Below, piece after piece: positions 16,340-43,524 of a stretch of DNA of 64,000 bases. The notes beneath the pieces are model-generated. The model saw only the letters and a program-made list of their open reading frames with translations, was not told where the DNA came from and did no database searches. Position 1 is the stretch's first letter; the number at the start of each line of letters is the position of its first letter. Location of the stretch: positions 868,001-932,000 of the forward strand of contig SMSO01000008.1 of the NCBI GenBank assembly GCA_004764695.1, in the 5' to 3' direction. The DNA comes from Schizochytrium sp. TIO01 (taxonomy: Eukaryota; Protista; Bigyra: Labyrinthulomycetes). The position numbers and the translations under genes are program-made.

Positions 16340-18784
16340 TTATGTTTTAATAACAGTAGTAATCTGCGACCCAGCTTGAGAATGAATCACACCAGTTATG
16401 GATGGAGCAAGCGTTGTAGCAACCTTCGCCCTAGTTGTCGCCGTAGTGATGGATTTGGCCAAGTTGAAACCAGCGGCGAACAGGCGACTTCCCACTATCA
16501 AAATGGCACATGAAACAGTGCAAAAGAAAATGCAAAAGGCTACAAAGACTGTTTTCAACATAGCTTCCATACCTGGTGCGAGAGAAACAAAAAGCGAAAG
16601 CCCAGCAAGGACTACCACATTGTAATTAGAGAAAAGCATAAACTTTGCCTCGTTGAAAACGAGCCCGCCAAAGTTACGCGTTTGACTTGCTAAAACGCAA
16701 CTCACAACAATGGTCATATAACAAATAGCCACAAGCACCATGAGTAATGTTGAATTGGTAGGACATATCATCTCATCTACATTTAACAGCTGGTCAGCAA
16801 CAGACGCGATAGGTGTAAAGCCAACAACTCCAAACCAGAGAGCAAACCACATTCCTGCAAACAAAGTACACAATGTTATATCGTAACGTATCAGAATTGT
16901 AGCACGTTGTGAGCGACGCCTGTCAAGTTTATACGCTTTGCGCATTAATATGTTAATCGTAAACTGCTTGATAAGCAGTGCCCCCACAAAGTAATAGAAA
17001 CCAAAAAGCAAGAACGAAAACCTCACTCCACATTTCAGTGTAGTTGGGGGGCCAATTTCAAAAAGCTGAGCAATATTCATCAAGACAGCCCCAAATAAGA
17101 GTAAAGACAAAGTCTTGATTCGTGCTACCCGAACAGCTTTATTTTTGCGATAGAATATAAGAGCAACCATACACAAAACAAAGACGATCCATGAGATAGA
17201 AGCTAATGCAAGAACAATCTTGCTCTCACGGCTTCCCTTTGGTGTATATGCGCATGGTATCTGTTTGAGAAGAGTAGTTTCGAGCTCAAGGGTTGTCCAC
17301 CGTGTTTTATATATCGATACATTTCGATGGTGGCATGGATCAGGATCTGCAATAATCTCTACACTTCCATCTTCAGTGTAAGCAGATGTTTGGTACACTG
17401 ATAAAATGTCTCGAGTCCCATCTACTTTGCAATCACATGCTACTACACTAGGTTCTAATGTCTCATCCATCCATACCTGATCGATAAAGGTATTATCGAC
17501 AGCGTTAATCCAGTCACCCCATGTTTCTTCATTCTCTCGTGCCCAGCTGCATGTAATGTTGTTCATAGATAAGTTAGGATTCTTCATGAACTCTGCATGC
17601 ATTATTTCTTGTTGAGAAGTTGAATTAAACGCAAATGCTCCAATCAAAAGAGCAAAATCAGGTTTAGTACTTTCCAATGATTTTGCATATGCTTTGGAGA
17701 GGCTATCGATAGGATACCCACAAGTTGATCCACCGGAATCTTCCAACGCTTGGCACTCAGCAGTGCTTAAAGGTAAGAGAACATCTTTTAGTTCAAAGTC
17801 GTAATAGTGAAAAGCTCCATGAGGTCGCCAAAAATAGAAAAGGGTGGGGGTTTGCGGATTAGTGTTTGCTGCGCGCTCAATTTCTCGAAGAAGATTGTCT
17901 TCAGAAGCAGCGAAGACTTGAGTAAAATTCAATCCAAGGTTTTTTAGAAGCTGTGCGTCGTGCTGAGTCCAGCCAATTTTACCTCCAATAAAACGTCCAC
18001 CATAAGTCGAGATATTACGGGGGACATCGGTGTTATCACATTCCGCTGTTGCGTTTGTAAATCCATTATGTGCAGCTGGTGTCCCCCCAAGAGATTCCAT
18101 AGGCATACAGGGTAAATAATCATCACTCTGGTCAAATTGTGAGCGACAACATGGTAAGCTTGGCCAGGGATGGGTAAATAGTTCAGCTTGACTTTGCTCA
18201 GTCAATGTTCGCCAATACTCGAGAGTAGCTCCATGATCATCTAAAACATATGAAGGTGTAAACCACCCTATTCGTCCTTCAACACCGTTTGAACCAGCAT
18301 TAACGATAGTGCCCCTTTCCACAACATACTCACGAATATTATCTGTGTGCCCAGAAGGCCAAAATTCCAAAATACCATCAAGTGTGCCCTCATCAAGTTG
18401 TGTCCAGGCACCTTTGTTAACAACATCTCCTGCACTGTCAAGTTCATCGTGCTCTAAAATAGTTCCCGTAAAATCAGTCACATCTGCAGTAATTTCTACT
18501 GGGTAGCCAAGGTATTCCTCAATGAAAATCTTTGCAACATAGACATTAATGAAAGCTCCAACCCATCCATTAATTCCAAGTTTTACGCTGCAAGGATAGG
18601 TTCCGTTTGCATAAGGCTCACATCGAAAGCTCCGAACTCCATCGGAACTCCACTTTGAAGATGGAAAGCAGCAATTGGATTCGTCAGCAGCACACGAGTC
18701 CTGCAAAGGATTTGTGCGGACAGCATGGCTATATTGTATACACTGCGCTAGGCAAACAACCATGTACAATAATAATCGTCGCAT
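16340..18784 (-). CDS. class C (GABA-B-like, 7tm_3) GPCR with N-terminal glycine betaine/proline-type substrate-binding domain (OpuAC/ProX-like)
   Basis: 814-aa ORF with signal peptide; ProX-like motifs GWVGAFINVYVAKIFIEEYLGYPVEI, ILEFWPSG, GRIGWFTPSYV, FYFWRPH; seven hydrophobic helices with class C signatures (FYRKNKAVRVAR; TRN..FNEAKFMLFSNYN). Confidence 0.85.
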   Translation of the reverse strand: MRRLLLYMVVCLAQCIQYSHAVRTNPLQDSCAADESNCCFPSSKWSSDGVRSFRCEPYANGTYPCSVKLGINGWVGAFINVYVAKIFIEEYLGYPVEITADVTDFTGTILEHDELDSAGDVVNKGAWTQLDEGTLDGILEFWPSGHTDNIREYVVERGTIVNAGSNGVEGRIGWFTPSYVLDDHGATLEYWRTLTEQSQAELFTHPWPSLPCCRSQFDQSDDYLPCMPMESLGGTPAAHNGFTNATAECDNTDVPRNISTYGGRFIGGKIGWTQHDAQLLKNLGLNFTQVFAASEDNLLREIERAANTNPQTPTLFYFWRPHGAFHYYDFELKDVLLPLSTAECQALEDSGGSTCGYPIDSLSKAYAKSLESTKPDFALLIGAFAFNSTSQQEIMHAEFMKNPNLSMNNITCSWARENEETWGDWINAVDNTFIDQVWMDETLEPSVVACDCKVDGTRDILSVYQTSAYTEDGSVEIIADPDPCHHRNVSIYKTRWTTLELETTLLKQIPCAYTPKGSRESKIVLALASISWIVFVLCMVALIFYRKNKAVRVARIKTLSLLLFGAVLMNIAQLFEIGPPTTLKCGVRFSFLLFGFYYFVGALLIKQFTINILMRKAYKLDRRRSQRATILIRYDITLCTLFAGMWFALWFGVVGFTPIASVADQLLNVDEMICPTNSTLLMVLVAICYMTIVVSCVLASQTRNFGGLVFNEAKFMLFSNYNVVVLAGLSLFVSLAPGMEAMLKTVFVAFCIFFCTVSCAILIVGSRLFAAGFNLAKSITTATTRAKVATTLAPSITGVIHSQAGSQITTVIKT

Positions 18785-27000: not shown

Positions 27001-28095
27001 TTACATGGAGAGAAGAAGCTTGCCCTTCGTAGCGCCGCTCTCAAGCAAGCGGTGAGCCTCGCCTGCCTGCTCAAGCGGGAGCACTTGCTGTACAGTAACC
27101 TTAACAGAACCGTCCTTAATCCAAGCTACGAGCTGGTCCATACGCTTCTTGAAATCTTCATGATCATCCAGGTAGTCATAGAGTTTCGGACGTGTAAGAA
27201 AGATGGATCCCAGGGCACTGAGCTGCAAGGGATCAATAGGCGGTACAGCTCCACTAGCATTTCCAAAGAGCACCACGGTTCCGAGCTTTCGCACGCAGTT
27301 CATCGACATCTTGTAGGTCTTTGCGCCAACGCCATCGTAAGACACATGAACTCCTTTGCCCTCAGTGGCTTCCTTCACACGCTTCACAACTTCCTCTTCT
27401 GAGAGTTCATCGTACGGAAGCACGAGGTCACAGCCCACGCTCTCGGCAACGGGGACCTTTGACTTGCTGCAAGTGCCGATGACGGTAGCGCCCAGAGCCT
27501 TGGCCATCTGCACGAGCAGCTGGCCAGTACCCCCAGCAGCTGCCTGCACAAGACAAACTTTGCCAGGGCCCAGCTGGAATGTGTTGCAAGCGAGATATTG
27601 TGCCGTAAGGCCTTGTGTGAGCAACGTTGTAAGCACGTCGAGTTCCACGCCCTCGGGAACGCTGTAGACGAAGTTGGAGCTGCAGGCTGTGTATTCCTGG
27701 TATGTGTCAGGGCCAAGGTAGGCCACGCGGTCGCCGACCTTGCAAATGGAGGCGTCCACATCGTTGCCAACAGCAACAACTTCACCTGAGCCTTCGCGGC
27801 CGAGTCCAAATGGTGTGGGTAGCTTGTAGAGCCCAGTGCGGTGGTAGGTGTCAATAAAGTTTACACCTGCAAATTTGTTGTGAACAAGGACCTGCTTCGG
27901 GCCTGGCTTTGGAACTTCGTAGTCCGTGCGAAAGCAGGCATCAAGGCCAGACGGATCGGCCACTACACTATCCAAAACGATAGCCTTTTGCGTGGCAGGA
28001 ATTGAAGAAGCCATGGTTCTCGTGCTCAAAACGCTGTTCGTGCGAATGCTTAGGTTCTGTGCTTGACGCAGTAACTTTGCAGTGCTGGAGAGCAT
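27001..28095 (-). CDS. qor: NADPH:quinone oxidoreductase (MDR family, QOR/zeta-crystallin type), probable mitochondrial presequence
   Basis: AGVNFIDTYHRTGLY, LGREGSG, QGLTAQYL, QAAAGGTG, YDGVG, LFGNASG, TRPKL, HRLLESGATKGKLLL; R/S/L-rich N-terminus before a second Met. Confidence 0.93.
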   Translation of the reverse strand: MLSSTAKLLRQAQNLSIRTNSVLSTRTMASSIPATQKAIVLDSVVADPSGLDACFRTDYEVPKPGPKQVLVHNKFAGVNFIDTYHRTGLYKLPTPFGLGREGSGEVVAVGNDVDASICKVGDRVAYLGPDTYQEYTACSSNFVYSVPEGVELDVLTTLLTQGLTAQYLACNTFQLGPGKVCLVQAAAGGTGQLLVQMAKALGATVIGTCSKSKVPVAESVGCDLVLPYDELSEEEVVKRVKEATEGKGVHVSYDGVGAKTYKMSMNCVRKLGTVVLFGNASGAVPPIDPLQLSALGSIFLTRPKLYDYLDDHEDFKKRMDQLVAWIKDGSVKVTVQQVLPLEQAGEAHRLLESGATKGKLLLSM

Positions 28096-29980
28096 GCAGT
28101 ATTACCTCGTCTGACCTTACAGCGATAGCCGGGTTGTCCAAGAGTCAAGCAGAAGCAGCGGGCGAGCTTGAATTGTCAATGCCTTGCTGCAATTATGGTT
28201 TTGCTGCACAAGTGAGACCACAGGAGGCCACCTCGAAGATTGCCAACATTTTGGATTTTCATTATTACTATCATCCAAATGATAGTGTTTCCACAACTAA
28301 GGCCACTTACTATCAACAATAGTAATAGTAATAATGCACACAAAAACAAGAAAGAAAAGAAAATGGCCTTCATCTTGGAGCACTTGAGGAGATCAGTCTG
28401 AGGATGGTTTGATCTCCTTCGTTAAAGTTGAACGCATAAACTGCGCTTATGAGCCGGTGCACTTTATCAATAAAGATCTAGAGTCGCTATAGTAATATGA
28501 AAGAATAACTCAATCTCCCACAGAAGGAGGTTGAGAAATAGTAGTTCACCGTGTTACTTCGGATCATGCTGAAAGTACGAGCTCACAAAAACAGCATTAA
28601 GACTGGTGAGAAACTTGCAAGCTACTAGGACTTCGTCAGCAGCGACGTGCGGGTTGATAACGGATTCGATGCGGGTGCAGAAGCAGATGTCGTGAAGGTT
28701 CACCCTCATTTCAAGCTTCGATCTTTTATTTAAGCCATATACAAACTAGAATCCGAAATGGTCTTTTGAGGAGGATAATCCGAGAGTCTCGGTGGCTACC
28801 CAGGTTCGCCCGAGGCCCATCCGGGATACTCGGAACATCCCATACATCAAACGGACAGCGCAGAGCATGCGAAGAACATATTAGAAGTTTCATCTGTGCC
28901 CAGTACAATGCTGATTGATCCCAAGTTTGCGTGAGAAACAATTTAGTAATAAATTACATGATAATGCATGCCTTAGTTAACTTAATTTTTTTAACTTTCC
29001 ATACATAAGAAATGACTGCGCAGTTGCAAATCTGGAGATTGTTGGGAACTTCAATGTATTGTTGTATTTGTAACCATGGGAATGGCAAGAGCACTGTAAC
29101 ATCGCGAGGATAGTCGGAATCTGCAAACGATTTGGTATGTATGTACGGAGCCTATTTTGGGACACCGATGAAAGTAAAACAAACAATATGGTATAGAGAC
29201 CCAGGATGGCGGAAACAAAGATTCAGTTCTTACTCAGAGATTTTATTTAGCATGCATAGTAAGACTATTTTTTTAATTTAGGCAAGCAGCTGTAAAGCGA
29301 AGGGCACATTGAGAGTGAAAGCATGTAAGCAAGATCATTGTAATACTAAATGCCGCCTGTTTTGCTGTATTGACCTTGGGTAAAATAAAAGTCTTTCTTG
29401 ACCTGCTTTGGGGGTATTCATACCAAAGGCTCCCTTTGCAGCTTGTTCAAGAAACAGCATTTAGAGAGACCGTAGAGTATATCTTGCCTGACAATCTTCT
29501 TCGTTAAATCTGAAAAACTATTTCCTCGTGGCGTGATTATAAGATTAAAGCGAAGACCTCACCAATAAGGCGCGGTTTTGTTTCTTAATGTATGCCAGCC
29601 AAGGCAAAATGCTATATTATTTAAAGATGAGTTTACTTGACACGCTAGTTGCCCTCACAGATGCTTCAAATAGCTCGGGCCACGTTCATTTACACATTTT
29701 GTTTTAGCTGATTGTTCAAAACATCCCTAAGGTCTCTTGATGCCTTTGAGTCGAAAGTGCTTTACATTGTGTTTACCCACTACCAAAGGACTGAATGCCT
29801 TACCTCTTAGAACCATCCTCGATGCTTCTGCAAGTCTGATCAATTGTAGTTCTTATCGTAAACTGCCAAAGTTCGGTTTATGATAAACCGTCCCATTTGG
29901 GGTAAGATCCTTCTAACCCCCCGTCATAATATATCCTAGAAGTACATACACATGTTCTTGTAATACCGCACCACCCAAGC

Positions 29981-30948
29981 AGAACCAGCTGTTCAACGAA
30001 ATATAGCAAATAAATCAAATCAATTCACTTCTTACTTTCTCAACCAGTTCCAAGCCGACCAAACAACTAAATAGCCCTCCAGAAAGCACTTACTTAGCCG
30101 CTAATTTCTAACTAATTGGCATAATAATCCAAGCTTTATAGCAAGAGAACCAGCTGTTCAACGAAATCGAATAAATATTCAAATCAATTCACTTCTTACT
30201 TTCTCAACCAGTTCCAAGCCGACCAAACAACTAAATAGCCCTCCAGAAAGCACTTACTTAGCCGCTAATTTCTAACCAATTGGCATAATAATCCAAGCTT
30301 TATAGCAAGAGAACCAGCTGTTCAACGAAATCGAATAAATATTCAAATCAATTCACTTCTCATTATTATATCAACCAGTCTCAAGCCAATCAAAGACAAC
30401 GAAATAGCCCTTACAATAAAACGCACTTACTTAGCCGCTAATTTCTAACTAGTTGGCATAATAATCCAAGCTTTATAGCACTAGAGAACCAGCTGTCCAA
30501 CGAAATCGAATAAATAAATCAAATCAATTCACTTCTTACTTTTCAACCTGTTCCAAGCCAATCAAAGACAACTAAATAGCCCTTACAATAAAACGCACTT
30601 ACTTAGCCGCTAATTTCTAACTAGTCGGCATAATAATCCAAGCTTTATAGCACTAGAGAACCAGCTGTCCAACGAAATCGAATAAATAAATCAAATCAAT
30701 TCACTTCTCATTATTATATCAACCAGTCTCAAGCCAATCAAAGACAACTAAATAGCCCTCCATAAAGCACTTACTTAGCTGCTGATTACTAACTAGTCGG
30801 CATAATAATCCAAGCTTTATAGCACTAGAGAACCAGCTGTTCAACGAAATAGAATAAATAAATCAAATCAATTCACTTCTCATTATTATATCAACCAGTC
30901 TCAAGCCAATCAAAGACAACTAAATAGCCCTTACAATAAAACGCACTT
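29981..30948. repeat. tandem array of ~5.7 copies of a 164-175 bp unit
   Basis: units begin AGAACCAGCTGT(T/C)CAACGAAAT at 29981, 30146, 30310, 30485, 30657, 30829; last copy partial. Confidence 0.97.
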
Positions 30949-31007
30949 GATCAGCCAGACACAACAAGATCCCAAAAAACAAACCAGAAATTATCAAACA
31001 TAACAAA

Positions 31008-32504
31008 TTACACATTATCATCAGAAGGCGATACGCGCTGATACGACTCAAAAGGATGTCGATCAGAGTTCAAAGAATCATCAAGAGAAGCAACCGCAGA
31101 AGACGAACGACAACATCCAGCAGACAAAAGCGAAAGAATCAAAATAAGAAGAATGGCAGCAACAAAAACCGGAAACTGCGGCGACTGTAAGGCCAGTGCT
31201 TTGTTGATAAAAGCCTTAAGCTGTTGCACAAACTCTGATTGTGATATCTGAGAATACGAAGAAGCAATCACAGAGATCGCAGTCGAATTCTGAAGAGAAG
31301 ATTGCGAGGTAGGCGACTGCGTCGGCTCGCGAGTGGTGGGACGAACCGTCGGAGATCGAGTCGTAGGCACAGAGGTCGGCGACCAGGTCTGGCCAGGCAC
31401 AGTTGGCGAACGCGTAGGCTCGGGCGTCGGCTCAGCATAACAAATCGAGGTCGATAAATCACAAGAACTTCCATAGACGCAATGATCATCCGCAGCACAC
31501 GGAAACTCCCCGACAGGACACGGACAAGCAGCATCACAATAATAAGCGTTACTGCGAGGACCAGAAGGACAACGATAAAGCATCCTAAACTGGCGAATAT
31601 CCTTCTCTGTGAGCTCAAGACTACCCAACTCAAGCGTTGGATCCGCATTCGACGTGAGCGCAACGAGACCATCCGCTCTAGCAAATGCAGTGCGACTATA
31701 ATGCATAATCGAAAGCAAATCATACGAAGAACCAAGCGAATCTACATTGATCTGCTTATCAAAGTTGGGCCACTTATCTTCTAAAATATTGTCCCAGTGA
31801 ACCGTAACATACTCATCTCTGTCAGGGCGACTCTGCTCATGATAAAAGCCAAGCGCATGCAACATCTCATGCATAATGGGCCTATTGTAAATACAACCAG
31901 TTGAATCATAACTGATCTCCTGCCTTCCTCCCATGCGCCCAACATAAGACCAACAACCGGTCCCGTCTATAATAGAAACATAATCAAGATTGCTCTTGTT
32001 AAGACTCGAATTGCCAATGATCTCCGGCGCCTTGTCAATCGACACAAACGTAATATAAGCCAGCTGCTGTGCCATTTTTCCGAGCGTCTCCTTAATGATC
32101 TGAATCTGCAGCGAGTTAAAGGTGCCCGACTCAATCTCATAAGGAATCACAAGTCTCGGCTGCGCATAACTACTCGCCGGCTGTGCTTCTCTGTAGGTCC
32201 ACAAATACTGATACTCATTAATAAGATCAAGCCGACGCGCACGATGATCAGTCCCCAGATCATCATCATAAATCGCCCATGGCTTTGCTTGCTTTACCTT
32301 TTGATACACAGTATCGCCATAATTGACCTTGAGCTGCGAAGAGCGGATCAGCATGTCTCCCTCAAAAAGCTCAGTCGCCGAAGCAACCGCAGCCGCTTTC
32401 TCCTCATCATAGAGCGGGCTGCTTTTGGGTTGCGCAGACACAGAGACGACATAGCATAGTAGGGTTATATATAGAAGGATACATTTGGCAAATAAGTAGT
32501 CCAT
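31008..32504 (-). CDS. membrane-anchored astacin (M12A) zinc metalloprotease
   Basis: signal peptide, pro-region LFEGDML, GCWSYVG, HEMLHALGFYHEQSRPDRD, Met-turn SIMHY, Cys-rich module, PT/TRSPT stalk, TM helix, short tail. Confidence 0.93.
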   Translation of the reverse strand: MDYLFAKCILLYITLLCYVVSVSAQPKSSPLYDEEKAAAVASATELFEGDMLIRSSQLKVNYGDTVYQKVKQAKPWAIYDDDLGTDHRARRLDLINEYQYLWTYREAQPASSYAQPRLVIPYEIESGTFNSLQIQIIKETLGKMAQQLAYITFVSIDKAPEIIGNSSLNKSNLDYVSIIDGTGCWSYVGRMGGRQEISYDSTGCIYNRPIMHEMLHALGFYHEQSRPDRDEYVTVHWDNILEDKWPNFDKQINVDSLGSSYDLLSIMHYSRTAFARADGLVALTSNADPTLELGSLELTEKDIRQFRMLYRCPSGPRSNAYYCDAACPCPVGEFPCAADDHCVYGSSCDLSTSICYAEPTPEPTRSPTVPGQTWSPTSVPTTRSPTVRPTTREPTQSPTSQSSLQNSTAISVIASSYSQISQSEFVQQLKAFINKALALQSPQFPVFVAAILLILILSLLSAGCCRSSSAVASLDDSLNSDRHPFESYQRVSPSDDNV

Positions 32505-32762
32505 CTTTATCTGATGGTGGTAAAAATTAACCCACCACAGCTATTGTTTGTTTTTTGTTTTTTATAAAAACGAAGACTTTACTACTACTCGGGATAGTGT
32601 AAACAGTATGTATGTGTTAAGTAGGATTTTGATAAAATCGATTGGAATTGATCATATAAGCTTCGAAAACAAAAGACACACAAAATGTCAGACCGAAACC
32701 TATGAGCTAGAAAACAAAGTAAACAAAGCAAACACAGAATCAATTCAGGAGTACAACCAAGC

Positions 32763-33134
32763 ATGACGAGGCCAAGTCAAACGAAGACTGAGACGCCTAG
32801 CGCAAGCAACGTAGCTCGAGACAAAGAAGTCATCAAAGAAAAGGCTACAAAGATTCTCGATAAAATATGCCAGCCCTTGTTCGACGTGGTCCAAGGCCCG
32901 CTACTGATGATGGTCACTGTTTATTTGACCTTATTCGTCGCCGGCTTACACGACCAAACAGTAAAGACGATCCAGATTGATGTAGACCTCAACACAATCT
33001 GCTGGTACCTCTGTCTAACCTGGATCACGGCCTACTGCTCAATCCGCCACCCATCTATCTATTGCCTGATGCTCATGTTATATAACTTGACCGGACACAA
33101 TAGTTTTCTATTCGCCATGTACACAAGCATGTAG
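32763..33134 (+). CDS. small membrane protein of unknown function (GLHD-motif paralog 1)
   Basis: 123 aa, hydrophobic helices, clear similarity to the next ORF. Confidence 0.7.
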   Translation: MTRPSQTKTETPSASNVARDKEVIKEKATKILDKICQPLFDVVQGPLLMMVTVYLTLFVAGLHDQTVKTIQIDVDLNTICWYLCLTWITAYCSIRHPSIYCLMLMLYNLTGHNSFLFAMYTSM

Positions 33135-33432
33135 TGATTAAGTCATCAATACTTTAAACAAAAACAAAAAATATTTCGCCTTAAATTGCTATATAAACAA
33201 ACCAATCGCCCGTTAGATGCAAACAAAAACAACTTGACACTATATTCACCAAAACCTAAACCCAAACCAAAACCAAAAAAAAGTAATAAACTCTACTACT
33301 CATCATCGCAACTGGGCAAAGGAGGCATGCCACCGTGACCGAGCATAACAAACGCTAAACTAGATCGAACAACCGACTTGACAAGTATATCTTATTATTT
33401 GATTTGTTTTGTTTTTTCAAAAGCAAAACATA

Positions 33433-33873
33433 ATGGCCCCAAAGAGCTTGCCGGTTCGCTTCCTCGAGAGCCCCGCGCCTTGCTTGGCGTCGGCTTGGCT
33501 AGCCTTGTATATTGTCGGCTTACATGACGCAAAGCTGGCGAGTTTTACGGTTGACTTGGACTTTACTCTTGTTGGCTACTTTGTAATGGCGAGCTGGATG
33601 CTGGCTGACTTTAGACGCATGAAGACAGTCTTTTATGCATTCTCACTAGCAGCCTTTGCACTGAGCGGTAGTGTGATGATCCTTTTCGGACTTGCAGCTG
33701 CCAGTATCGCGCTGATCTGGAAGCTTATTGATAAGTGGATCAGATATGAGATAAAAGACAAGAGAACCGAATACTCTACGTTGTATCAAGCTTTTGGTTC
33801 AAGACTCTCTTCTGCTCAGACAACAGAAGATAGTTCAACAACATCATCAACAGCCGCCGCCGCCGCCGCCTAA
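33433..33873 (+). CDS. small membrane protein of unknown function (GLHD-motif paralog 2)
   Basis: ATG at 33433 in A-rich context (146 aa); LYIVGLHD..VDLD motif shared with the upstream ORF. Confidence 0.75.
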   Translation: MAPKSLPVRFLESPAPCLASAWLALYIVGLHDAKLASFTVDLDFTLVGYFVMASWMLADFRRMKTVFYAFSLAAFALSGSVMILFGLAAASIALIWKLIDKWIRYEIKDKRTEYSTLYQAFGSRLSSAQTTEDSSTTSSTAAAAAA

Positions 33874-33996
33874 AAATAGCACGCAGATGGGTTTCAAGAA
33901 AGCAGTCGCCTGAACGAATACTTATATAAACTAACTAACTATCAAACATTTGTCTTATACATTTTACAGATCAGAAAGCAAGAGGTTCTTCGATCA

Positions 33997-34064
33997 ATCA
34001 GGTTGATAAACTAGAAGGAGAATACGAGCTATCAGGTTGATAAACTAGAAGGAGAATACGAGCT
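33997..34064. repeat. perfect 34-bp tandem duplication spanning the stop codon of the LAGLIDADG-dUTPase ORF
   Basis: ATCAGGTTGATAAACTAGAAGGAGAATACGAGCT at 33997-34030 and 34031-34064. Confidence 0.95.
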
Positions 34065-35513
34065 CTCAATAAACTCAATGCCTGGATTCGAACGCCGGAC
34101 CATCATGTAACACGCAACAAACGGAAAGTCTGGCAAAGACGCTGTCCTGGAGCCAAGTCGAAGCAAAGGAATCAGGATCTCCTCCGTAGACGAAGGGTCA
34201 ACCACGATCGTCTCCTGAATCATGCGGTAGCCTAGAGAATATAATTGAGGCGCGGCAATGATCTCAACATGAAAGCCAAAAGGTGGCGTGAAGCGTAAAC
34301 CTGTCGAACAAATCAGCTGGTCGTCTGAAATGCGAGTGTGAACACCGGTCAAGCTCAAGTGATACATTGGCGAGCTGGCATGCTGCTTAAACGGAAGCAC
34401 TGCAGTAGGCTCGAGTCGATGGACCTGGACACTGCCAAACTGCTGGCGCGAACTGCCAATAATCTTGTACAATAGAGGGAAAGTCTTGCCGCCCGGCAAT
34501 GCGCTCGTGCTTGGATCGAATCCTCTATAAAAGAGACCCAGAAAGTTATAGGCATCCTTGCCGAGCAAGTGCACGCGGTACTTGTTGGTGATTAGCGAGG
34601 TCTCGAGAGGAAGAAGCAGGGTGCGAAACGCGGGCATCAGCGCCGGCGTCAACTGGATCGTAAGCTCCGGCTTGGCAACATCGATCGCTCCTGCGGCTTC
34701 TATGTAACCCCGCCAATATTCGCGAATGCAGTATTCCAGGTGATAGCCATCAAATTCGTACGAAGGTGCGCGATGCATGAAGCGGTGATGTGCAATTGTT
34801 CTAACAATTTGCCAATTATGAATCTGAGCCTCGTAGATGATTGTGCCCGAGGTGCTGCGCTGTTCATAAATATGGCCATCGTAGCCACAGGCGCCCCAGG
34901 CTGATCGTTCATCCCAAAGCTTGCTTCGTCGCAGAGAGTCAATGACTGAGCGCAGGTCTTCGAGCCGCGACCTGTCGCGCACACTAAAGACCAAGCTATC
35001 GCGCTTCACCTGTGCGGATGCCGTCGCGAAGCCGAGCACATAGAACTCTGCAGTTTCTGACTCTGCAAAACTTCTGGATGACGGTCTCAAGTTGTTTCGA
35101 GGTGACCTGCGACTTGGCGAGGCAACTTCCATGTCCTCCTGGTCATCATGGTCTTGGCTATCCTCGCTGTCGAGATGCTGGTCGTATTGCTGATCGATAG
35201 TAGTCGTTTCCTGTTGTTTGTTTTCTTGGTGGTTTTCCTGGACGATTACCCATCTTCGGTGATCACAGCCGTTTGATTGATCAGACGCGCAGCAGCAGGG
35301 TTCTGAACATTTGGGTCCAGCGGTAGCGCGAGATCTAGGCAGATAAGGCTGGCTGCAATCGACTTGAAGCTGCGTTTGTTGTTGCCGCATGCCTGGTGCA
35401 GACGAGGGCCTAGGCGTCTCAATGATGCTTTCAATCATCAGTGCGTCCGAATCAATTTCATGTTTCTGTGCCGCTTGGCTAGACGACCGTGTTGTAACTC
35501 CGATCGGCGCCAT
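34032..35513 (-). CDS. degenerate double-motif LAGLIDADG domain fused to a C-terminal inactive dUTPase-like domain
   Basis: FYVLGFATASAQV and YWRGYIEAAGAI resemble LAGLIDADG helices, followed by GKDAYNFLGLFY; C-terminus AVLPFKQHASSPMYHL..STGLRFTPPFGFHVEI..GYRM..IVVDP..ILIPL follows dUTPase motif order with catalytic residues lost. Confidence 0.7.
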   Translation of the reverse strand: MAPIGVTTRSSSQAAQKHEIDSDALMIESIIETPRPSSAPGMRQQQTQLQVDCSQPYLPRSRATAGPKCSEPCCCASDQSNGCDHRRWVIVQENHQENKQQETTTIDQQYDQHLDSEDSQDHDDQEDMEVASPSRRSPRNNLRPSSRSFAESETAEFYVLGFATASAQVKRDSLVFSVRDRSRLEDLRSVIDSLRRSKLWDERSAWGACGYDGHIYEQRSTSGTIIYEAQIHNWQIVRTIAHHRFMHRAPSYEFDGYHLEYCIREYWRGYIEAAGAIDVAKPELTIQLTPALMPAFRTLLLPLETSLITNKYRVHLLGKDAYNFLGLFYRGFDPSTSALPGGKTFPLLYKIIGSSRQQFGSVQVHRLEPTAVLPFKQHASSPMYHLSLTGVHTRISDDQLICSTGLRFTPPFGFHVEIIAAPQLYSLGYRMIQETIVVDPSSTEEILIPLLRLGSRTASLPDFPFVACYMMVRRSNPGIEFIESSYSPSSLST

Positions 35514-35800
35514 GCTTATTTGTTGTTTGGAATCTGGTGACCTGCTTCAGAATTAGAGTTCTGCCGTCGAGCACAAAAGTCTCTGGAGTAACATAAAATC
35601 AAAAACTATAAACTAACAGACGATCAACAACAACAACAACAACAACAAAAAAACGTTGGGCGGCTCTAGACTGTCTGACCCTCCCCCATACATGTTTTAA
35701 AATAATAGTAATCATAATAATAATAATAATAGTCATGTTGACCAAATAAAGTCTGTACACAGCGCAGTTGATTTATAGTTTTATTCTGTTTTTTTTTTTT

Positions 35801-37675
35801 TTATGATTCTGTTTTCTCATGTAGAGCCCTGATCAAATAAAGTCTGTACATTTTGTTTGAGCGGCTCGGAAACAAAGCTGGGTCTACGCAGATCTCACCT
35901 CGAGCATCCTGAATCATGTACAATAAATCTGTCATCGAATTTGACTTTGCATAATCATAATGCATAGCACACAAATAAGAAGTAAATGTCAAGCGTCGGC
36001 AGCCATTCACAACACAGGTCTTCGTCTTACAATGTGTCTTGCACAATGAATGACGCTGCGCAAGCCGGAAACAGCCCCGTGTCTTGCAAAGATATTTATC
36101 ATTGTAATAAATCATCGTGCTCAACACTTCAATCTGCTGTGCAATTGTGTCTGTCTCGCGAAGCTTATCAACCGCCTCGCCACGACGCCTCTTGTTTCGA
36201 AAATAATGTGTGCTCAAGGCAACGCAAGACATGTAAGTCAACTGACTCTTTAGATCGAGCTGCGAAGAGATGCTAGTATCTTTCATATCCGATCGATTGT
36301 TAGAAGGACTCGGCACACGAATCGAGCTTAGAACACTGTCGCTGTCTGAACTGCTATGATTAGAATCTTCAGCGGGCGTTCGAGCGATCTTTTTAGACTT
36401 GGTTTTCTGCTCAGTAGAGAGTTTGCGTTTACGAGTCTTGCGAGACATCTCTAGCTGAGAGACTCTTTCGTCGACATATCGTATGATTGTTTCAACCAGA
36501 CTCTCCTGAGGTAACTTTTCAGTGCAAGCTGCCTCTTGTTGCTTAGTGCTGGTTTTTGGAACGACATGAGAATGCTGGTCTTGACCGGTCGCGCTGTGTT
36601 CGCGGCCAAGCTCAGGTTGTTGTTGTTGTTGTTTTTGTTGCTGTTGTTCAGGTTGTTGTTGTTTTTGTTGCTGTTGTTGTTGTTGTTGAGGTAGCTGTTG
36701 TTGAGGTAGCTGTTGTTGAGGTAGCTGTTGTTCAGGTTGCTGTTGTTCAGGTTGCTGTTGTTCAGGTTGCTGTTGTTCAGGTTGTTGCTGTTGTTCAGGT
36801 AGCTGTTGTTGTTGTTGTTCAGGTTGCTGAGGCGCTTGTTGTTGCTGAGGCGCTTGCTGTTGTTGCTGAGGCGCTTGTTGTTGTTGAGGTTGCTGTTGTT
36901 GAGGTTGCTGTTGTTGCTGAGGCGCTTGTTGTTGCTGAGGCGCTTGCTGCTGCTGAGGCGCTTGTTGTTGAGGTTGCTGTTGTTGTTGCTGAGGCGCTTG
37001 CTGCTGCTGAGGCGCTTGCTGCTGCTGAGGCGCTTGTTGTTGTTGAGGTTGCTGTTGTTGAGGTTGCTGTTGTTGCTGAGGCGCTTGTTGTTGCTGAGGC
37101 GCTTGCTGCTGCTGAGGCGCTTGTTGTTGAGGTTGCTGTTGTTGTTGCTGAGGCGCTTGCTGCTGCTGAGGCGCTTGCTGCTGCTGAGGCGCTTGCTGCT
37201 GCTGAGGCGCTTGTTGTTGCTGAGGCGCTTGCTGCTGCTGAGGCGCCGCCTCTTGTGGCGCTCGCTCCTGTGCGTTTATAGTGTTTGCCGACTTTGTCTG
37301 AGCGATCGGTGGTTCATCCTGTTCGCTCGATCCAGCAGCGCCGACTTTATCTAACTCGCGCGCCGCCGGTAGAGCACAGCCCTGCTCACACGACTCGCGT
37401 ACTAGACTGCTGTTGCTATCTCTGCTGTTGTCGCAGCTATCTCCGCTCTTGTCCGGTTCTTGTTGGTCACCGAAGTCAGGAGTATCAGGTGGATCAAGCA
37501 ATGGATGTTCACTGCCCGACTTTTCTTGTGCCGAGCCTGTAAATACGTGAGTATTCAGAAATCGATGCGCTATCGACGTAGAGCTTGTCTGAGGCGTGCG
37601 ACGCCTTGACAAACTCTGAAGCAGCGTCTCCAGAAGCTGCACACTATCACTGCCGCTGCTGTTATGATTGTTCAT
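35801..37675 (-). CDS. polyglutamine-rich putative nuclear regulator with two WRKY19-like Cx4Cx9Cx2H zinc fingers
   Basis: 624 aa; (APQQQQ)n tract, NLS-like RKTRKRK, CKTRGC-x9-CKTH and CVVNGC-x9-CAMH. Confidence 0.8.
   Translation of the reverse strand: MNNHNSSGSDSVQLLETLLQSLSRRRTPQTSSTSIAHRFLNTHVFTGSAQEKSGSEHPLLDPPDTPDFGDQQEPDKSGDSCDNSRDSNSSLVRESCEQGCALPAARELDKVGAAGSSEQDEPPIAQTKSANTINAQERAPQEAAPQQQQAPQQQQAPQQQQAPQQQQAPQQQQAPQQQQQQPQQQAPQQQQAPQQQQAPQQQQQPQQQQPQQQQAPQQQQAPQQQQAPQQQQQQPQQQAPQQQQAPQQQQAPQQQQQPQQQQPQQQQAPQQQQQAPQQQQAPQQPEQQQQQLPEQQQQPEQQQPEQQQPEQQQPEQQLPQQQLPQQQLPQQQQQQQQKQQQPEQQQQKQQQQQPELGREHSATGQDQHSHVVPKTSTKQQEAACTEKLPQESLVETIIRYVDERVSQLEMSRKTRKRKLSTEQKTKSKKIARTPAEDSNHSSSDSDSVLSSIRVPSPSNNRSDMKDTSISSQLDLKSQLTYMSCVALSTHYFRNKRRRGEAVDKLRETDTIAQQIEVLSTMIYYNDKYLCKTRGCFRLAQRHSLCKTHCKTKTCVVNGCRRLTFTSYLCAMHYDYAKSNSMTDLLYMIQDARGEICVDPALFPSRSNKMYRLYLIRALHEKTES
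36612..37243. repeat. coding minisatellite (APQQQQ / PEQQQ / LPQQQ) with ~159-bp higher-order period
   Basis: GAGGCGCTTG(T/C)TG(T/C)TGCT units; the block at 36901 recurs at 37060. Confidence 0.9.
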
Positions 37676-37828: not shown

Positions 37829-39790
37829 TTATTCCGCTTTAACAAAACCAAAGACCGAGTCGAAGTACTGGTTGTCTTTCTCAAGATGGTCCACGGACGC
37901 AGCTACTTTCGACATACCAAAGTCAATCAGGCGAACCGTCTCTAGTTCATCAATTACAAAGTTACGCAACTGAATGTCACGATGCGCAACACCACGAGCA
38001 TGAACAGCATCAAGCGCCGCGCGTGCCTTTTGCTTAATTTCCATAGTGATCTTACCTTTGTAAAAATCTAGAGACGTGCCATGACAACTCACCGCCAAAA
38101 TTAAATCATTGAACACGTGCCGGCCGCCGTAAAAATAAAAGGGAACATGCAAACCCCATAAAGGGCGCAGTGCTTCGTAAACTCGCATCTCATTCTCAAA
38201 GCTAGCGGTCGCCGCGGCAATGTACTCCTCAGAGTCCTCCTTGGGCGTCATCACCTTGACAATAAAATCAAGCCCACACGCTGTCGAATGCTGTGCGAAA
38301 GAATACTGACCCTCAGAATAAGTATGGAGCACATCATAAAGGCCGCCACGGTACGGAAATTCCTTCATCTTGAACGGCAGGCGATTCTGAAGCATCTTCA
38401 AAAGATGCGACAGATCGTCAGTCTCCTTTGTATCAGTTTCAGCTGCAGTCAAATCAGGATCAGCCGAATCAGAACTTGAGTCTTGCGTAGACACGGCTTC
38501 TGTATCACCACGCAGAGACTGGCGAAGATTGTTCACTTTACGATTAACAATCTTAGACACAGACCTTGCCATTTGTTTAAGCTTGTCTACTTTAGTTGTT
38601 TGCTTGTCCAGCCTTCCAAGATAATGATTGTACATATTCATCCACTCTTCATACTCTTTTAGATTTTGAGAACCTTTACCAGGAGTGGTATTTGCAATCT
38701 TTTCAAGCATCTCTTTTGATAGCTCGGTCCGGGATCCGTTTCGCAAAGCGTTGATAATGAACGCCGCGTAAGCAAACTTGACAGTCCCTAGTCCTTGATC
38801 TGTGCCATAATAGCACTTTGAGACCATCAATTGATTATCCGCAGTCAGCTTCAGAAACCAGGTGCGATCAGTGGTACTCAGGACCCCGTAACAAACAAAC
38901 GCGCGGATCATATATACGTAAATCTGTATGATCGGAGTCAGATATCTGTTATCGCTGCTCGATTTTTTAGGAAATTTAAGATTGAATTGCTCCCAATACT
39001 TGACCAGATCATCGATAACAACCTCTTCCTCGTCGTCGTCATCATTATCCAGGTCTATTACAACCTTATCACGCGGCAGTCCAACTGGAAAAACATTTGG
39101 CGCTTTTTGTTCATGGACTATAAAGATTCTCAGATTGCTGTTTCTAGAATGATACCCACCGATGCCACACGTATCAAGTCCAGCCTCATCATTCGGATCA
39201 ACATATCGCATCAACACACCATCTGGTTTGAATCCTGGATGGCTATTTTCTTTAACAAAAGCTACACATTGACGTTGCAGATCAGGAACTGCATAGACCA
39301 CTTTATCAATGAAAGGAGTCATAAACTTCTCTTTTAAGGCATCCAGTGAAAGACCTTCATCAGGATTCAAACCTTGGCGATTGTAATACGTTTCGAAATA
39401 GTCTGGGTCAACGTATATGTTGAGATATGGTTCTTGCCCGTTTGCGATCTTTTCAAATTGCATTTCAGTTTCGAAATTCTCCCAAGCGACCAATGCAGAT
39501 GGGCTAATATTCAACTTCTGTTGCTGGTTTCTCGAACCATCTCGTGACTGGGTAAACCTAGTTGTCGGAGACGACAGGCCACTTTGATCCCGCCGGTCTT
39601 GGCTAGCTCTAGACTGTGTTCGAGGTCTCGAGGTAGGAGGTCTCCATTGTTCAACAAGCGGCTCTTCGAGCAGAGGATTCATGCATATTGCGTAATAAGC
39701 AACTTGCAAGGCACGTTGGGCAATCCTGGCCTCGGGGGGCTTCAAACGGTGGTCACCACCGTCTCTGTTGTTGTTCCAGGATCTCTTCAT
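37829..39790 (-). CDS. PD-(D/E)xK restriction-endonuclease-like domain plus C-terminal kinase (Crinkler/CR-effector-like architecture)
   Basis: KPDGVL..FIVHEQK..IIQIYVYM..YGVLSTTDRTWFL (REase); IVKV, FENEMRVYEAL, HRDIQLRNF, IDFGMS (minimal kinase); first ATG at 39790 (track start is TTG). Confidence 0.8.
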   Translation of the reverse strand: MKRSWNNNRDGGDHRLKPPEARIAQRALQVAYYAICMNPLLEEPLVEQWRPPTSRPRTQSRASQDRRDQSGLSSPTTRFTQSRDGSRNQQQKLNISPSALVAWENFETEMQFEKIANGQEPYLNIYVDPDYFETYYNRQGLNPDEGLSLDALKEKFMTPFIDKVVYAVPDLQRQCVAFVKENSHPGFKPDGVLMRYVDPNDEAGLDTCGIGGYHSRNSNLRIFIVHEQKAPNVFPVGLPRDKVVIDLDNDDDDEEEVVIDDLVKYWEQFNLKFPKKSSSDNRYLTPIIQIYVYMIRAFVCYGVLSTTDRTWFLKLTADNQLMVSKCYYGTDQGLGTVKFAYAAFIINALRNGSRTELSKEMLEKIANTTPGKGSQNLKEYEEWMNMYNHYLGRLDKQTTKVDKLKQMARSVSKIVNRKVNNLRQSLRGDTEAVSTQDSSSDSADPDLTAAETDTKETDDLSHLLKMLQNRLPFKMKEFPYRGGLYDVLHTYSEGQYSFAQHSTACGLDFIVKVMTPKEDSEEYIAAATASFENEMRVYEALRPLWGLHVPFYFYGGRHVFNDLILAVSCHGTSLDFYKGKITMEIKQKARAALDAVHARGVAHRDIQLRNFVIDELETVRLIDFGMSKVAASVDHLEKDNQYFDSVFGFVKAE

Positions 39791-40044
39791 CGTAGGGGCT
39801 TTTATCTGGTGTTCGGGTACTGCTTCGTTCAAGTTGTTGATTTGTTGGTTTGCTGACTTTGTTTAAGTTTTTGGTTTGCTTATTTTTTTTGTTGTTGTTG
39901 ACTTACTAGTAAAATAAATAAATAATAATAATAATAGGACTGTATCAAAAATTCATCTGAAAACAAATAAAAACTTAAGTATTTGTAACTAAAAAACAAA
40001 GAACAAAAGAGCGGCGCGCGCCAACATATAGTTATTATTTATTA

Positions 40045-40877: not shown

Positions 40878-41058
40878 GCAGTGAGTCGAAGAAAAAAGAG
40901 TAGCTTGTACTGGTTCTGCAGTGAAACGAAGAAAAAAGAGTAGCTTGTACTGGTTCTGCAGTGAATCGAAGAAAAAAGAGTAGCTTGTACTGGTTCTGCA
41001 GTGAATCGAAGAAAAAAGAGTAGCTTGTACTGGTTCTGCAGTGAGTCGAAGAAAAAGC
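40878..41058. repeat. tandem array of ~4.5 copies of a 40-bp unit
   Basis: GCAGTGA(A/G)(T/A)CGAAGAAAAAAGAGTAGCTTGTACTGGTTCT, period 40. Confidence 0.97.
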
Positions 41059-41061
41059 AGA

Positions 41062-41249
41062 GCTAGCTTTGTCTATTGGTCAATAAGTGAGTTGTGCAGC
41101 CACAATAGCCAATTTGGAGAACAGCCAATATGGGATTTAAAGAACAGGCTAACTGGCTAATAGTCAACTATGGGGTAATAGCAATAGAGAATAAATCAGA
41201 ATAACATGGAGCTCTCTGTGGCTAGCTTTGTCTATTGGTCAATAAGTGA
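41062..41249. repeat. 29-bp direct repeat pair
   Basis: GCTAGCTTTGTCTATTGGTCAATAAGTGA at 41062-41090 and 41221-41249. Confidence 0.9.
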
Positions 41250-41319
41250 TTCCCACAATGGCCATAGAACTGTCAGTTAGTAATAGGACAAAAATGAGAT
41301 TAAAGCCGAGAGAAACTAT

Positions 41320-43524
41320 TTATTTATGATGATTGTGATGTTTAGGCTTGGAAATAACTTTTTTATGAATAACATGAGGATGTGGAGCTTGCTCAATGAC
41401 CAAAGGAGCTTCCTCGTCAAAACGCTGTTCGGTTTGATCAGACGGCGGGCGACAACATGCCAAACAACAACAAAATAAACAAGGAACACCAATCGAAACA
41501 GAAATAATAATATAAAGGCGAGTGAAACTGACAATCGTTGTACTCTGCGGTGGAATATATTCATCATGAATATAACAAGTTAAGTTAGCACCCGTAACAG
41601 AAATACCAGCCGTAACTGCTTGTGCATCTTGCTCTACATTTGCACAATAATCAGTCGTCGAGTCCTGATCATCGGTGAAATTGAGCGCAGAACATACCCG
41701 CTTAAACCTAAAATTATTAAGTAAAACAGTTTGCTGATCAGACATACCATTCAACTGCTGGAAAGGTGATGTCTCTATCGATAAAGCTTCCCAATTGACA
41801 TACAAAATACAATCACCCAGAGAGGTATCAATCATAAGAGCACGACATGCCAAAGGATTCTCTGAACAAATGTTCTCACAAAGCTCCAAAAGACTCGACT
41901 GATATTTCTGTCCTATATATCCTGTGCGATGACGCAGAACATAAGCAGTCTCAAGATCGCAAATGCGAGGCGAAACAGGCGTGTAAGCACTCGCTATCGT
42001 AGCATCCGCCTGAAAAACCATCGTGTAATCATAACGAGCATAACAAACACTCGAAATGACCGTCTCTTGACCAAGCGTAGAAGACACCAAATGCCACGTA
42101 TCTCTCTCAGGCTCCGCAATATACTGATAAAGCTGAGCAACATTCCACGTTCGATCAGCCTCATAAGGCACAGACCCAACAAACAAAGAACCAAGCTTTT
42201 TGAAATTAGTCCAAAGCTGACTAAACGAATTTACATCAAAGTCCAAAAAGGCCTTTACAGAAGTATAAAGCGTACACTTTGCAAGAACCGTGTCTCGATC
42301 ACCAAAGGTAACCATGAAACCCTTGCACATTGCTTTATGCTTCTCACAGTAGTCCCTACAAAAGGCAACCTTTTCATCGTCCATCTGAAAAATGTTCGAC
42401 ATCGCCATTGCCTGAGCCTGCGCCTGCGTAAGCCCATCAGTCAAATTAAAGGTAAACGAAGCACTAATTGGCGCAGAGTAAGAAGCCGAAGTACAGCGCG
42501 CACCACCAGTATATAGATAAACAGATTCAGTGTCACTATAAGGACTTACAACGCCAGGCTTTGTGACGCAAGTAATACTCGTATCTGCAACATTTGAAGT
42601 CAACTGGCGAGCACTGCGCCAAAGCTTGATTTTTCTTTGCTGATAAGTGACCTCGCGATATGTATAAGCATCAAGCGCAGCGACCTCCGAACGAAGCAAA
42701 AAGTTGCAGCGCGTATGCAAAGAACTGTTTTGGCGAACAATATACTCGACGCCTGCACACCAATCATTTGCACAACATAAAGCGCTACATTCATCAAAGA
42801 CTTCAATATTCGTCGAAGGCACATCAAGAGAATAAACATAACCATCTTTCACTGCGCCCATACAATTACCCATTCGCACGGTCTTGAGCTGAACGCGGCA
42901 CCCAGATGTCGCAAACTCTGCATGATCATTCGGATTGTTTTGATTTGTACTAATTCGATAAGGTTGAACTTGGTCTGTTGTACACTGAGCAAGTTTGCTA
43001 GCGTCGACGCAGTCAAGCAACTGTGCAGCCTCACTCTGCTGAGGCCACGCGAGATCTCCTTGGCCTGCATTCAACGCATCGTCAGTCAGCAGCTCGCAGT
43101 TGCCATCGTAGATGTTAAATCCTAAGCAAAAGTCATTATTATATCTGCACATTGCTCTACACTTGACGGTGTCCCAAGTGAAGTCTTCGGGTCTGTCCAG
43201 CACCATGGTTGTGCCTGTCGAAAAAGGACTGATCGCTCTGACTCCCTCACCCACCGAGCAGAAATCATCGACCGAGCTTGCTAAGGAGTCTTGTTCACTG
43301 TCATCACCATCTGCGCAATCGACCAAAAAGATAGCACTCTGCGAAGCATCCACCTCGAGCTCGCTCGCCAGCGATGAACGCAAGAAAATCGCATAATTGT
43401 CATCATCAGTCATGCCTCTACTCAAATGAATCTTGCCAGCTAAAGTCGTTAGATTCCAACTGGTTGAAGCGGGCAAGCTCTGAGGCCAGCTGTAGTCGTC
43501 ACCTGCCCACGAAGGCATCATCAC
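41320..43524 (-). CDS. Cys-rich type I surface glycoprotein with four PAN/apple-like modules; probably 5'-truncated
   Basis: CRAMC..CLGF..CELL; CSALC..CAGV..CNFL; CRDYC..CKGF..CTLY; CENIC..CRAL..CILY; many N-glycosylation sequons; TM followed by CCCLACC; no signal peptide. Confidence 0.8.
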   Translation of the reverse strand: MMMPSWAGDDYSWPQSLPASTSWNLTTLAGKIHLSRGMTDDDNYAIFLRSSLASELEVDASQSAIFLVDCADGDDSEQDSLASSVDDFCSVGEGVRAISPFSTGTTMVLDRPEDFTWDTVKCRAMCRYNNDFCLGFNIYDGNCELLTDDALNAGQGDLAWPQQSEAAQLLDCVDASKLAQCTTDQVQPYRISTNQNNPNDHAEFATSGCRVQLKTVRMGNCMGAVKDGYVYSLDVPSTNIEVFDECSALCCANDWCAGVEYIVRQNSSLHTRCNFLLRSEVAALDAYTYREVTYQQRKIKLWRSARQLTSNVADTSITCVTKPGVVSPYSDTESVYLYTGGARCTSASYSAPISASFTFNLTDGLTQAQAQAMAMSNIFQMDDEKVAFCRDYCEKHKAMCKGFMVTFGDRDTVLAKCTLYTSVKAFLDFDVNSFSQLWTNFKKLGSLFVGSVPYEADRTWNVAQLYQYIAEPERDTWHLVSSTLGQETVISSVCYARYDYTMVFQADATIASAYTPVSPRICDLETAYVLRHRTGYIGQKYQSSLLELCENICSENPLACRALMIDTSLGDCILYVNWEALSIETSPFQQLNGMSDQQTVLLNNFRFKRVCSALNFTDDQDSTTDYCANVEQDAQAVTAGISVTGANLTCYIHDEYIPPQSTTIVSFTRLYIIISVSIGVPCLFCCCLACCRPPSDQTEQRFDEEAPLVIEQAPHPHVIHKKVISKPKHHNHHK

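Follow-up and report, generated by a model that had tools for sequence, protein, structure and literature searches.

A LAGLIDADG-dUTPase fusion with degenerate catalytic motifs in both domains, probably of giant-virus origin, among ordinary genes of Schizochytrium sp. TIO01

Both a LAGLIDADG fold and a dUTPase fold are present in a 493-aa protein encoded in the window, by which we mean the whole stretch of 64,000 nucleotides that was analysed. This protein is a dead variant within a family of fusions, found in giant viruses and some bacteria, that join a LAGLIDADG domain to a dUTPase. Our reading of the gene as a whole, to which we assign a probability of roughly 0.45, is that the fusion was likely derived from a giant virus and that its product would serve as an enzyme-dead homotrimeric scaffold, as predicted by structure modelling, rather than as a nuclease, a dUTPase or a nucleotide sensor.

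Two folds without their catalytic residues

Sequence searches with the 493-aa protein returned nothing significant in Pfam, NCBIfam or PDB, and PHROGs gave only a weak endonuclease match (E 0.15). A phmmer search with aa 145-485 against 1.84 billion proteins produced 423 matches at E <= 0.001; among the 37 of these that were scanned, the Pfam dUTPase model was found in 33, and LAGLIDADG_3 passed in 3. A profile built from 70 of the phmmer matches and free of the query aligned with aa 153-475 at 127 bits, the 70 sequences having been picked by similarity to the query. The AlphaFold model, computed with the family alignment, reached a pLDDT of 87.6 and a pTM of 0.83, and a VIA structure search compared it with 48,161 solved chains. 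The C-terminal part resembled dUTPase (Z 15.4, rmsd 2.2, 122 residues aligned; Foldseek E 1.3e-7), and the N-terminal part resembled PI-PfuI (Z 13.5, rmsd 3.7, 174 aligned), I-DmoI (Z 12.7, rmsd 3.2, 163 aligned) and WhiA (Z 10.3-11.9). The fusion had been proposed in a first-pass annotation made from the sequence alone, and the profile and structure searches that this annotation had suggested recovered both of its folds.

The 493-codon frame (35513-34032, minus strand) has no internal stop, as had been claimed, and is apparently intron-free (Table 1). Its second Met is aa 26, at which P0002, an intact allele with three replacements, begins. The gene is a free-standing ORF in which the Pfam scan found no splicing domain (aa 1-144 unmodelled). 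Runs X2 and X5 have just one copy of the 34-bp unit that is duplicated at its stop codon, and the protein is unaltered by this difference.

Table 1. Features in and around the LAGLIDADG-dUTPase gene, in window coordinates
Feature	Position	Strand	Basis
Class C-type GPCR transmembrane domain fused to OpuAC solute-binding domain	16340-18784	-	
172-bp array of 5.7 copies, immediately downstream of the astacin gene	29981-30948		
34-bp tandem duplication at the stop codon of the LAGLIDADG-dUTPase gene	33997..34068	.	repeat scan
LAGLIDADG-dUTPase gene, 493-aa ORF with disordered tail, dead LAGLIDADG and dead dUTPase	34032..35513	-	ORF scan, profile, AlphaFold, fold search
dUTPase beta-fold, aa 357-485, motif III Asp alone kept	34059..34445	-	Foldseek, VIA, motif table
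Monomeric two-repeat LAGLIDADG domain, aa 149-356, without catalytic Asp in either motif	34446..35069	-	VIA, motif table
Second LAGLIDADG motif YWRGYIEAAG, aa 266-275	34689-34718	-	motif table
First LAGLIDADG motif YVLGFATASA, aa 158-167	35013-35042	-	motif table
N-terminal extension, aa 1-148, Ser/Gln/Asp-rich, net charge -8, likely disordered	35070..35513	-	beyond family profile
624-aa protein, long QQQQAP repeat, weak C-terminal WRKY19-like zinc finger (E 0.37)	35801-37675	-	
Kinase-like C-terminus with PD-(D/E)xK-like stretch upstream	37829-39832	-	
40-bp array, 4.5 copies	40878-41056		

According to the motif table, the catalytic acidic columns closing the two LAGLIDADG motifs are occupied by Ser and Ala, which bears out the earlier statement that YVLGFATASA and YWRGYIEAAG lack the canonical acids. 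Active homing is rejected, as no catalytic acids are left in either motif. In the dUTPase part, one of the six scored features is kept, namely the Asp of motif III, while the motif I Asp, the motif II Arg-Ser, the motif III aromatic residue, the motif IV Gln and motif V are lost. The earlier claim that all dUTPase motifs are eroded was therefore correct in the changes that it described (SSPMYHL at aa 380-386, AAPQL at aa 420-424 and IVVDPSSTE at aa 436-444) and in the absence of a Gly-rich motif V, but it overlooked the retained Asp. The last dUTPase strand (aa 479-483) is predicted to swap into a neighbouring subunit.

The fusion family and the rarity of the double loss

Of the 93 relatives whose sequence spans the LAGLIDADG region, 11 have Asp-Gly at both nuclease motifs, and the motifs are degenerate in the other 82. 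Judged from these sequences, nuclease loss is the family norm and is probably older than the query gene. Because it is the norm, the loss of nuclease residues is no sign of domestication by the host. The dUTPase motifs are intact in 90 of 93 full-length relatives and lost in the query. Dead dUTPases, with at most two of the six features, make up 29 of 148 matches, 6 of them fused, and doubly dead full-length fusions number 2 of 93 (P0028 and P0091), with one similar row (L071) that ends at a contig end. Thus, the 'doubly disarmed' state is less surprising than at first sight, although doubly dead full-length fusions are rare. What is distinctive is a lone host-like gene amid ordinary protist genes, intact across strains and with a predicted trimer.

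A viral scan yielded at least 21 loci; among those listed, 9 are named as giant-virus MAGs and 14 have full-length fusions. A GTDB scan with a bacteria-weighted alignment yielded 52 loci, 28 of which were classed as fusions at a cut-off of 70 of 170 N-terminal columns. The bacterial fusions belong mostly to Polyangiaceae and other Myxococcota, and also to Bacteroidota, including marine Microscillaceae and Cytophagaceae. At loci L022-L052, the fusion with an intact dUTPase recurs in many Polyangiaceae or other Myxococcota and in some Bacteroidota, indicating that it is not solely viral. Elsewhere (L006:1135-1581), an intact fusion that keeps both nuclease motifs has, 2.5 kb away, a second dUTPase-like gene, which is standalone and divergent and whose motifs are eroded.

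Standalone, mostly dead dUTPases of giant viruses that form a conserved clade were also observed (L074:7884-8453, L075:7643-8191 and L076:7863-8381). Their hallmarks are an R-x-D-N-R-x-E-D insertion and an HMF-like C-terminal tail, and 2 of 23 members gave a Pfam dUTPase match; in L074 and L075, the standalone gene adjoins a similar small gene. This clade is viral, as a pattern scan led to three loci on contigs of 80-212 kb, two of the three with RNA-polymerase subunits. Its members seem to be exapted viral proteins of a family not yet described.

The fusion family is large, yet nearly absent from print: a single passing mention (PMC6669658) and no other description was found in the literature. 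In the portion of that article available, a 'novel dUTPase' of the lizard-cricket iridovirus is described as having an N-terminal 'intein splicing domain' and a trimeric dUTPase, with its best homologue in Pithovirus. On our reading of the table in the same portion, this second dUTPase of the virus would belong to the fusion family.

Origin of the gene

A giant-virus (Nucleocytoviricota) donor is likely, though not proven. The best BFVD match over both domains is a 386-aa dUTPase of Clandestinovirus (E 1.6e-15, TMq 0.61), followed by two dUTPases of Marseillevirus LCMAC, and the top ESM Atlas cluster (score 0.97) is 91% viral, with Nucleocytoviricota the commonest. Trees were built without the 11 catalytic columns and without the tail, and contained no mirusvirus dUTPases. 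FastTree (216 rows) put the query into a clade (SH 87) made up of 23 dUTPases that stand alone and are mostly dead. IQ-TREE, with 53 chosen rows, split the query together with 10 standalone rows, P0031 and P0133 from the other 40 (99/98). The same grouping of the query with P0031, P0133 and the standalone clade was obtained under a mixture model with 33 rows (91/85), a set stripped of every dead row but the query and of six more rows that were long or gappy. The query branch is very long (2.2-3.7), the longest or nearly the longest in the tree, and no close relative of the query was found in the viral contigs, the JGI metagenome contigs or the GenBank phages. Loss of the dUTPase activity may have taken place either in the virus or in the host.

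An alternative hypothesis, which we consider improbable, is that an identical protein was donated by a bacterium, one of the Myxococcota or Bacteroidota that carry the fusion. In its favor are the 28 fusions among the GTDB loci, including those of marine Microscillaceae and Cytophagaceae, and an AU test in which the grouping of the query with the 7 bacterial-type rows stays unrejected (p = 0.085). However, both maximum-likelihood trees set the query apart from all 7 of these rows, the full-length bacterial dUTPases that were scored are intact (contig-cut ones aside), and the top Atlas clusters are viral. Thus, the viral ancestry put forward by the first-pass annotation is likely, given the BFVD and Atlas matches and the trees, with the AU result leaving room for the bacterial grouping. 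A herpesvirus or mirusvirus DURP origin is rejected in view of the single trimeric-type dUTPase domain, though a mirusvirus may yet have been the donor.

Genomic setting

The window is eukaryotic. Long genes of one exon each flank the LAGLIDADG-dUTPase gene: those on one side encode a GPCR carrying a solute-binding domain, a protein kinase, an enzyme of the quinone-reductase type and an astacin, and those on the other encode an adaptor mu subunit, HAT1 and a calpain. The composition of the LAGLIDADG-dUTPase gene itself (GC 0.52, GC3 0.54, with a host GC3 range of 0.32-0.58) is host-like, so that a compositional island is rejected, and its host-like codon use implies long residence in the host. 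No viral hallmarks were found in 18 ORFs searched against Pfam or in 6 searched against NCBIfam and PHROGs, and three small neighbouring ORFs are unannotated. The viral island envisaged earlier is not borne out, as the other annotated genes of the window are ordinary eukaryotic ones and the neighbouring kinase has no close relative in the viral contigs. Being the lone demonstrable virus-like gene in the window, the fusion gene is evidence for the transfer of a single gene rather than the integration of an element.

Both arrays are real; the 172-bp one is some 3.1 kb from the gene and the 40-bp one some 5.4 kb. In run X18, one contig has other letters in place of 41029-41099, and one contig links 40393-40604 to 33317-33859 via 140 other letters, the latter being a hint that the locus is rearranged, or has a paralogue, in another strain. 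In the DNA run X2, 30919-36605 forms one contig at depth 15, whereas the depth is 32-44 at 28000-29980 and 18 at 41015-42000. Possible causes are hemizygosity and the collapse of duplicates, depth being no copy number. Several divergent contigs of run X2 map to the kinase-like gene (37829-39832, minus strand), which suggests a multi-copy family, and this gene presumably resembles nuclease-plus-kinase 'Crinkler-like' architectures. In run X5, one contig connects the QQQQAP-repeat gene with the LAGLIDADG gene, of which it covers the 5' half.

Retention or decay

At least half of the words of the stretch were found in 8 studies besides the possible source, and one DNA contig of run X2 covers the gene, from the astacin gene through the poly-Gln gene. 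Three runs, which are guessed to be RNA, have contigs over the gene while leaving most intergenic bins uncovered; none of the listed runs that contain the stretch is recorded as RNA. One of these contigs joins the LAGLIDADG-dUTPase gene to the upstream same-strand gene; read-through is therefore possible, and transcription is only hinted at.

The strongest alternative to a retained scaffold, which we nevertheless regard as rather unlikely, is that the gene is a slowly decaying relic: an already dead viral paralogue in a plastic region, functionless, with a frame kept open by luck or residual read-through. Its narrow distribution fits such a relic, since neither phmmer against the 1.84 billion proteins, among the 150 matches listed, nor word-based searches returned a full-length orthologue outside the species; the latter recovered the query's own cluster, P0091 (7992 candidates scored), the fragment P0003 and nothing else. 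P0003 (109 aa, 71% identical over 77 aa), the sole further close relative that turned up, is truncated and stops at aa 211, and the word-based search found no C-terminal piece downstream of it. The truncation could be a contig end or a pseudogene, and the fragment could be an orthologue or a paralogue. The differences among strains, 3 replacement and 1 silent, also agree with decay, the ratio being neutral in what are tiny numbers (40 of 270 rows and P0002). In addition, dead paralogues recur in the family, in both fused and standalone form, and the region harbors tandem arrays and a multi-copy kinase.

Several observations speak against decay. In a neutral, substitution-only simulation (2000 runs, 73-81% identity), 493 codons remained stop-free in 2.7-7.5% of cases, which is the chance of an open frame under neutrality at the divergence of P0003, indels being uncounted. 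Between the query and P0003, the folded part is better conserved (34 of 42 positions identical, no gaps) than the tail (24 of 36 identical, 8 columns gapped). The confident fold and the trimer interface, both of them model predictions, and the host-like codon use with the long residence that it implies are likewise more in keeping with retention.

Predicted trimer and proposed function

Three copies of the dUTPase domain were predicted to form a trimer with the last strand swapped, at a score of 0.85 against 0.00 for the best of three controls, in agreement with the trimer that had earlier been named as possible, although the pass may reflect the model's memory of solved dUTPase trimers. The contacts agree at 82% or more, with a pLDDT of at least 83. 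Of 30 solved homo-pairs, 21 attained the mark, and none of 23 single chains did so (17 of 29 and none of 30 for eukaryotes), a calibration outside which three copies lie.

The dUTPase features lost in the protein are those that hold phosphates, metal and sugar. Nucleotide sensing, which the first-pass annotation had entertained, is therefore unlikely, as the motif I Asp, the motif II Arg-Ser, the motif III aromatic residue, the motif IV Gln and motif V have all disappeared. For the scaffold that we favor, we infer the following course. The donor's nuclease would already have lost its activity, like that of most family members, and its dUTPase was possibly dead too. The dUTPase core would still trimerise through its swapped C-terminal strand, as predicted, and the trimer would present a degenerate LAGLIDADG domain and an acidic tail from each of its three subunits. 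Modest selection in the host would then maintain the protein, which would act as an adaptor that binds either protein partners or, with low specificity, nucleic acids, and such a role would parallel the reuse of dead dUTPases by herpesviruses.

A more far-reaching version, in which a eukaryote domesticated the giant-virus fusion such that a dUTPase hub carries three DNA-binding saddles and a new acidic, Gln-rich recruiting tail, or such that the protein poisons a viral enzyme, deserves little credence. The net charge of the LAGLIDADG domain is +2, whereas the median is -4 for degenerate relatives (17 of 80 are as high) and +7 for relatives with intact motifs (n=11); as a sequence measure, it would speak neither for nor against DNA binding. 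Taken singly, a WhiA-like, sequence-specific DNA-binding regulator, whose saddle would read a site (possibly in the 172-bp or 40-bp arrays), whose trimer would bind several repeats and whose tail would activate transcription, is distinctly improbable. The full two-repeat saddle fold is retained, the charge exceeds the median of the degenerate relatives and an acidic Ser/Gln-rich tail is present, but the protein has no HTH, the driver of WhiA binding in the part of the source available (PMC3240954). Also against such a regulator, the charge falls below the median of the intact-motif relatives and nuclease loss is family-wide. The idea that the protein binds the repeat arrays, raised by the first-pass annotation, finds nothing to tie it to either array.

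To our knowledge, no virus of the host encodes the fusion, which counts against the protein being an antiviral poison subunit. This very improbable alternative, in which a dead protomer joins the active fusion of an infecting giant virus and mixed trimers lose activity since all three protomers contribute to every active site (PMC8961515, as far as the available text goes), draws on the predicted intact interface and on the persistent large DNA viruses that thraustochytrids are described, in the available part of 10.64898/2026.07.28.741200, as hosting and exchanging genes with, but the identity to any active member is about 20-30%, so that the interfaces are perhaps incompatible.

A doubly dead copy on a host chromosome, with an added tail, would mean that a protist is keeping a gene already recycled once in viruses, in a lineage known for persistent large DNA viruses. 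LAGLIDADG is unmentioned in the available portions of the literature on Aurantiochytrium and thraustochytrid viruses, the supplements of which may list the gene. If a function is shown, a selfish nuclease would have become a host protein by a new route, and the herpesvirus dUTPase-related proteins would have a cellular counterpart; a neutral gene, by contrast, would simply be one of the usual fossils left by transfer from virus to host.

Comparison with known systems

The giant-virus fusions, such as that of Clandestinovirus (A0A8F8KKJ2) and, putatively, that of the lizard-cricket iridovirus, have the domain order and the two-domain fold in common with the query, whose degenerate nuclease motifs are also those of most of the family, and the query differs from them in its dead dUTPase, its 148-aa acidic tail and its setting among host genes on a protist chromosome. 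The dead viral dUTPase paralogues, both fused (P0028 and P0091) and standalone (P0016, P0078 and L074-L076), show a loss pattern like that of the query: motif II is replaced by a P/x-x-L-Y-x-x-G-Y stretch, and the motif III aromatic residue and motif V are gone. In contrast to the standalone dead clade, the query has neither the R-x-D-N-R-x-E-D insertion nor the HMF-like tail, has kept its LAGLIDADG domain and is encoded by the host.

WhiA (DUF199) likewise possesses a nuclease-dead, two-repeat LAGLIDADG fold. However, the C-terminal domain of the query is a dUTPase fold and not an HTH, the query is not conserved across a phylum, and a role in DNA binding would be putative. As WhiA binds DNA mainly through its HTH domain, according to the part of the report available (PMC3240954), the analogy with WhiA drawn by the first-pass annotation is weak.

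The herpesvirus dUTPase-related proteins resemble the query in that an enzyme-dead dUTPase fold has been kept. In the available part of the source (PMC8961515), the dead dUTPases UL72, U45, UL31, pp71/UL82, ORF10 and ORF11 are described as having kept the fold for protein binding. They stem from a monomeric, duplicated enzyme with motif VI, whereas the query has a single dUTPase domain of about 130 aa, is a predicted trimer, is fused to LAGLIDADG and has trimeric-type fusions as its nearest relatives; pp71 and ORF10 rank lower in the VIA fold search, at Z 8.3 and 6.9. The dead dUTPases of herpesviruses nevertheless offer a closer working model for this protein than WhiA does.
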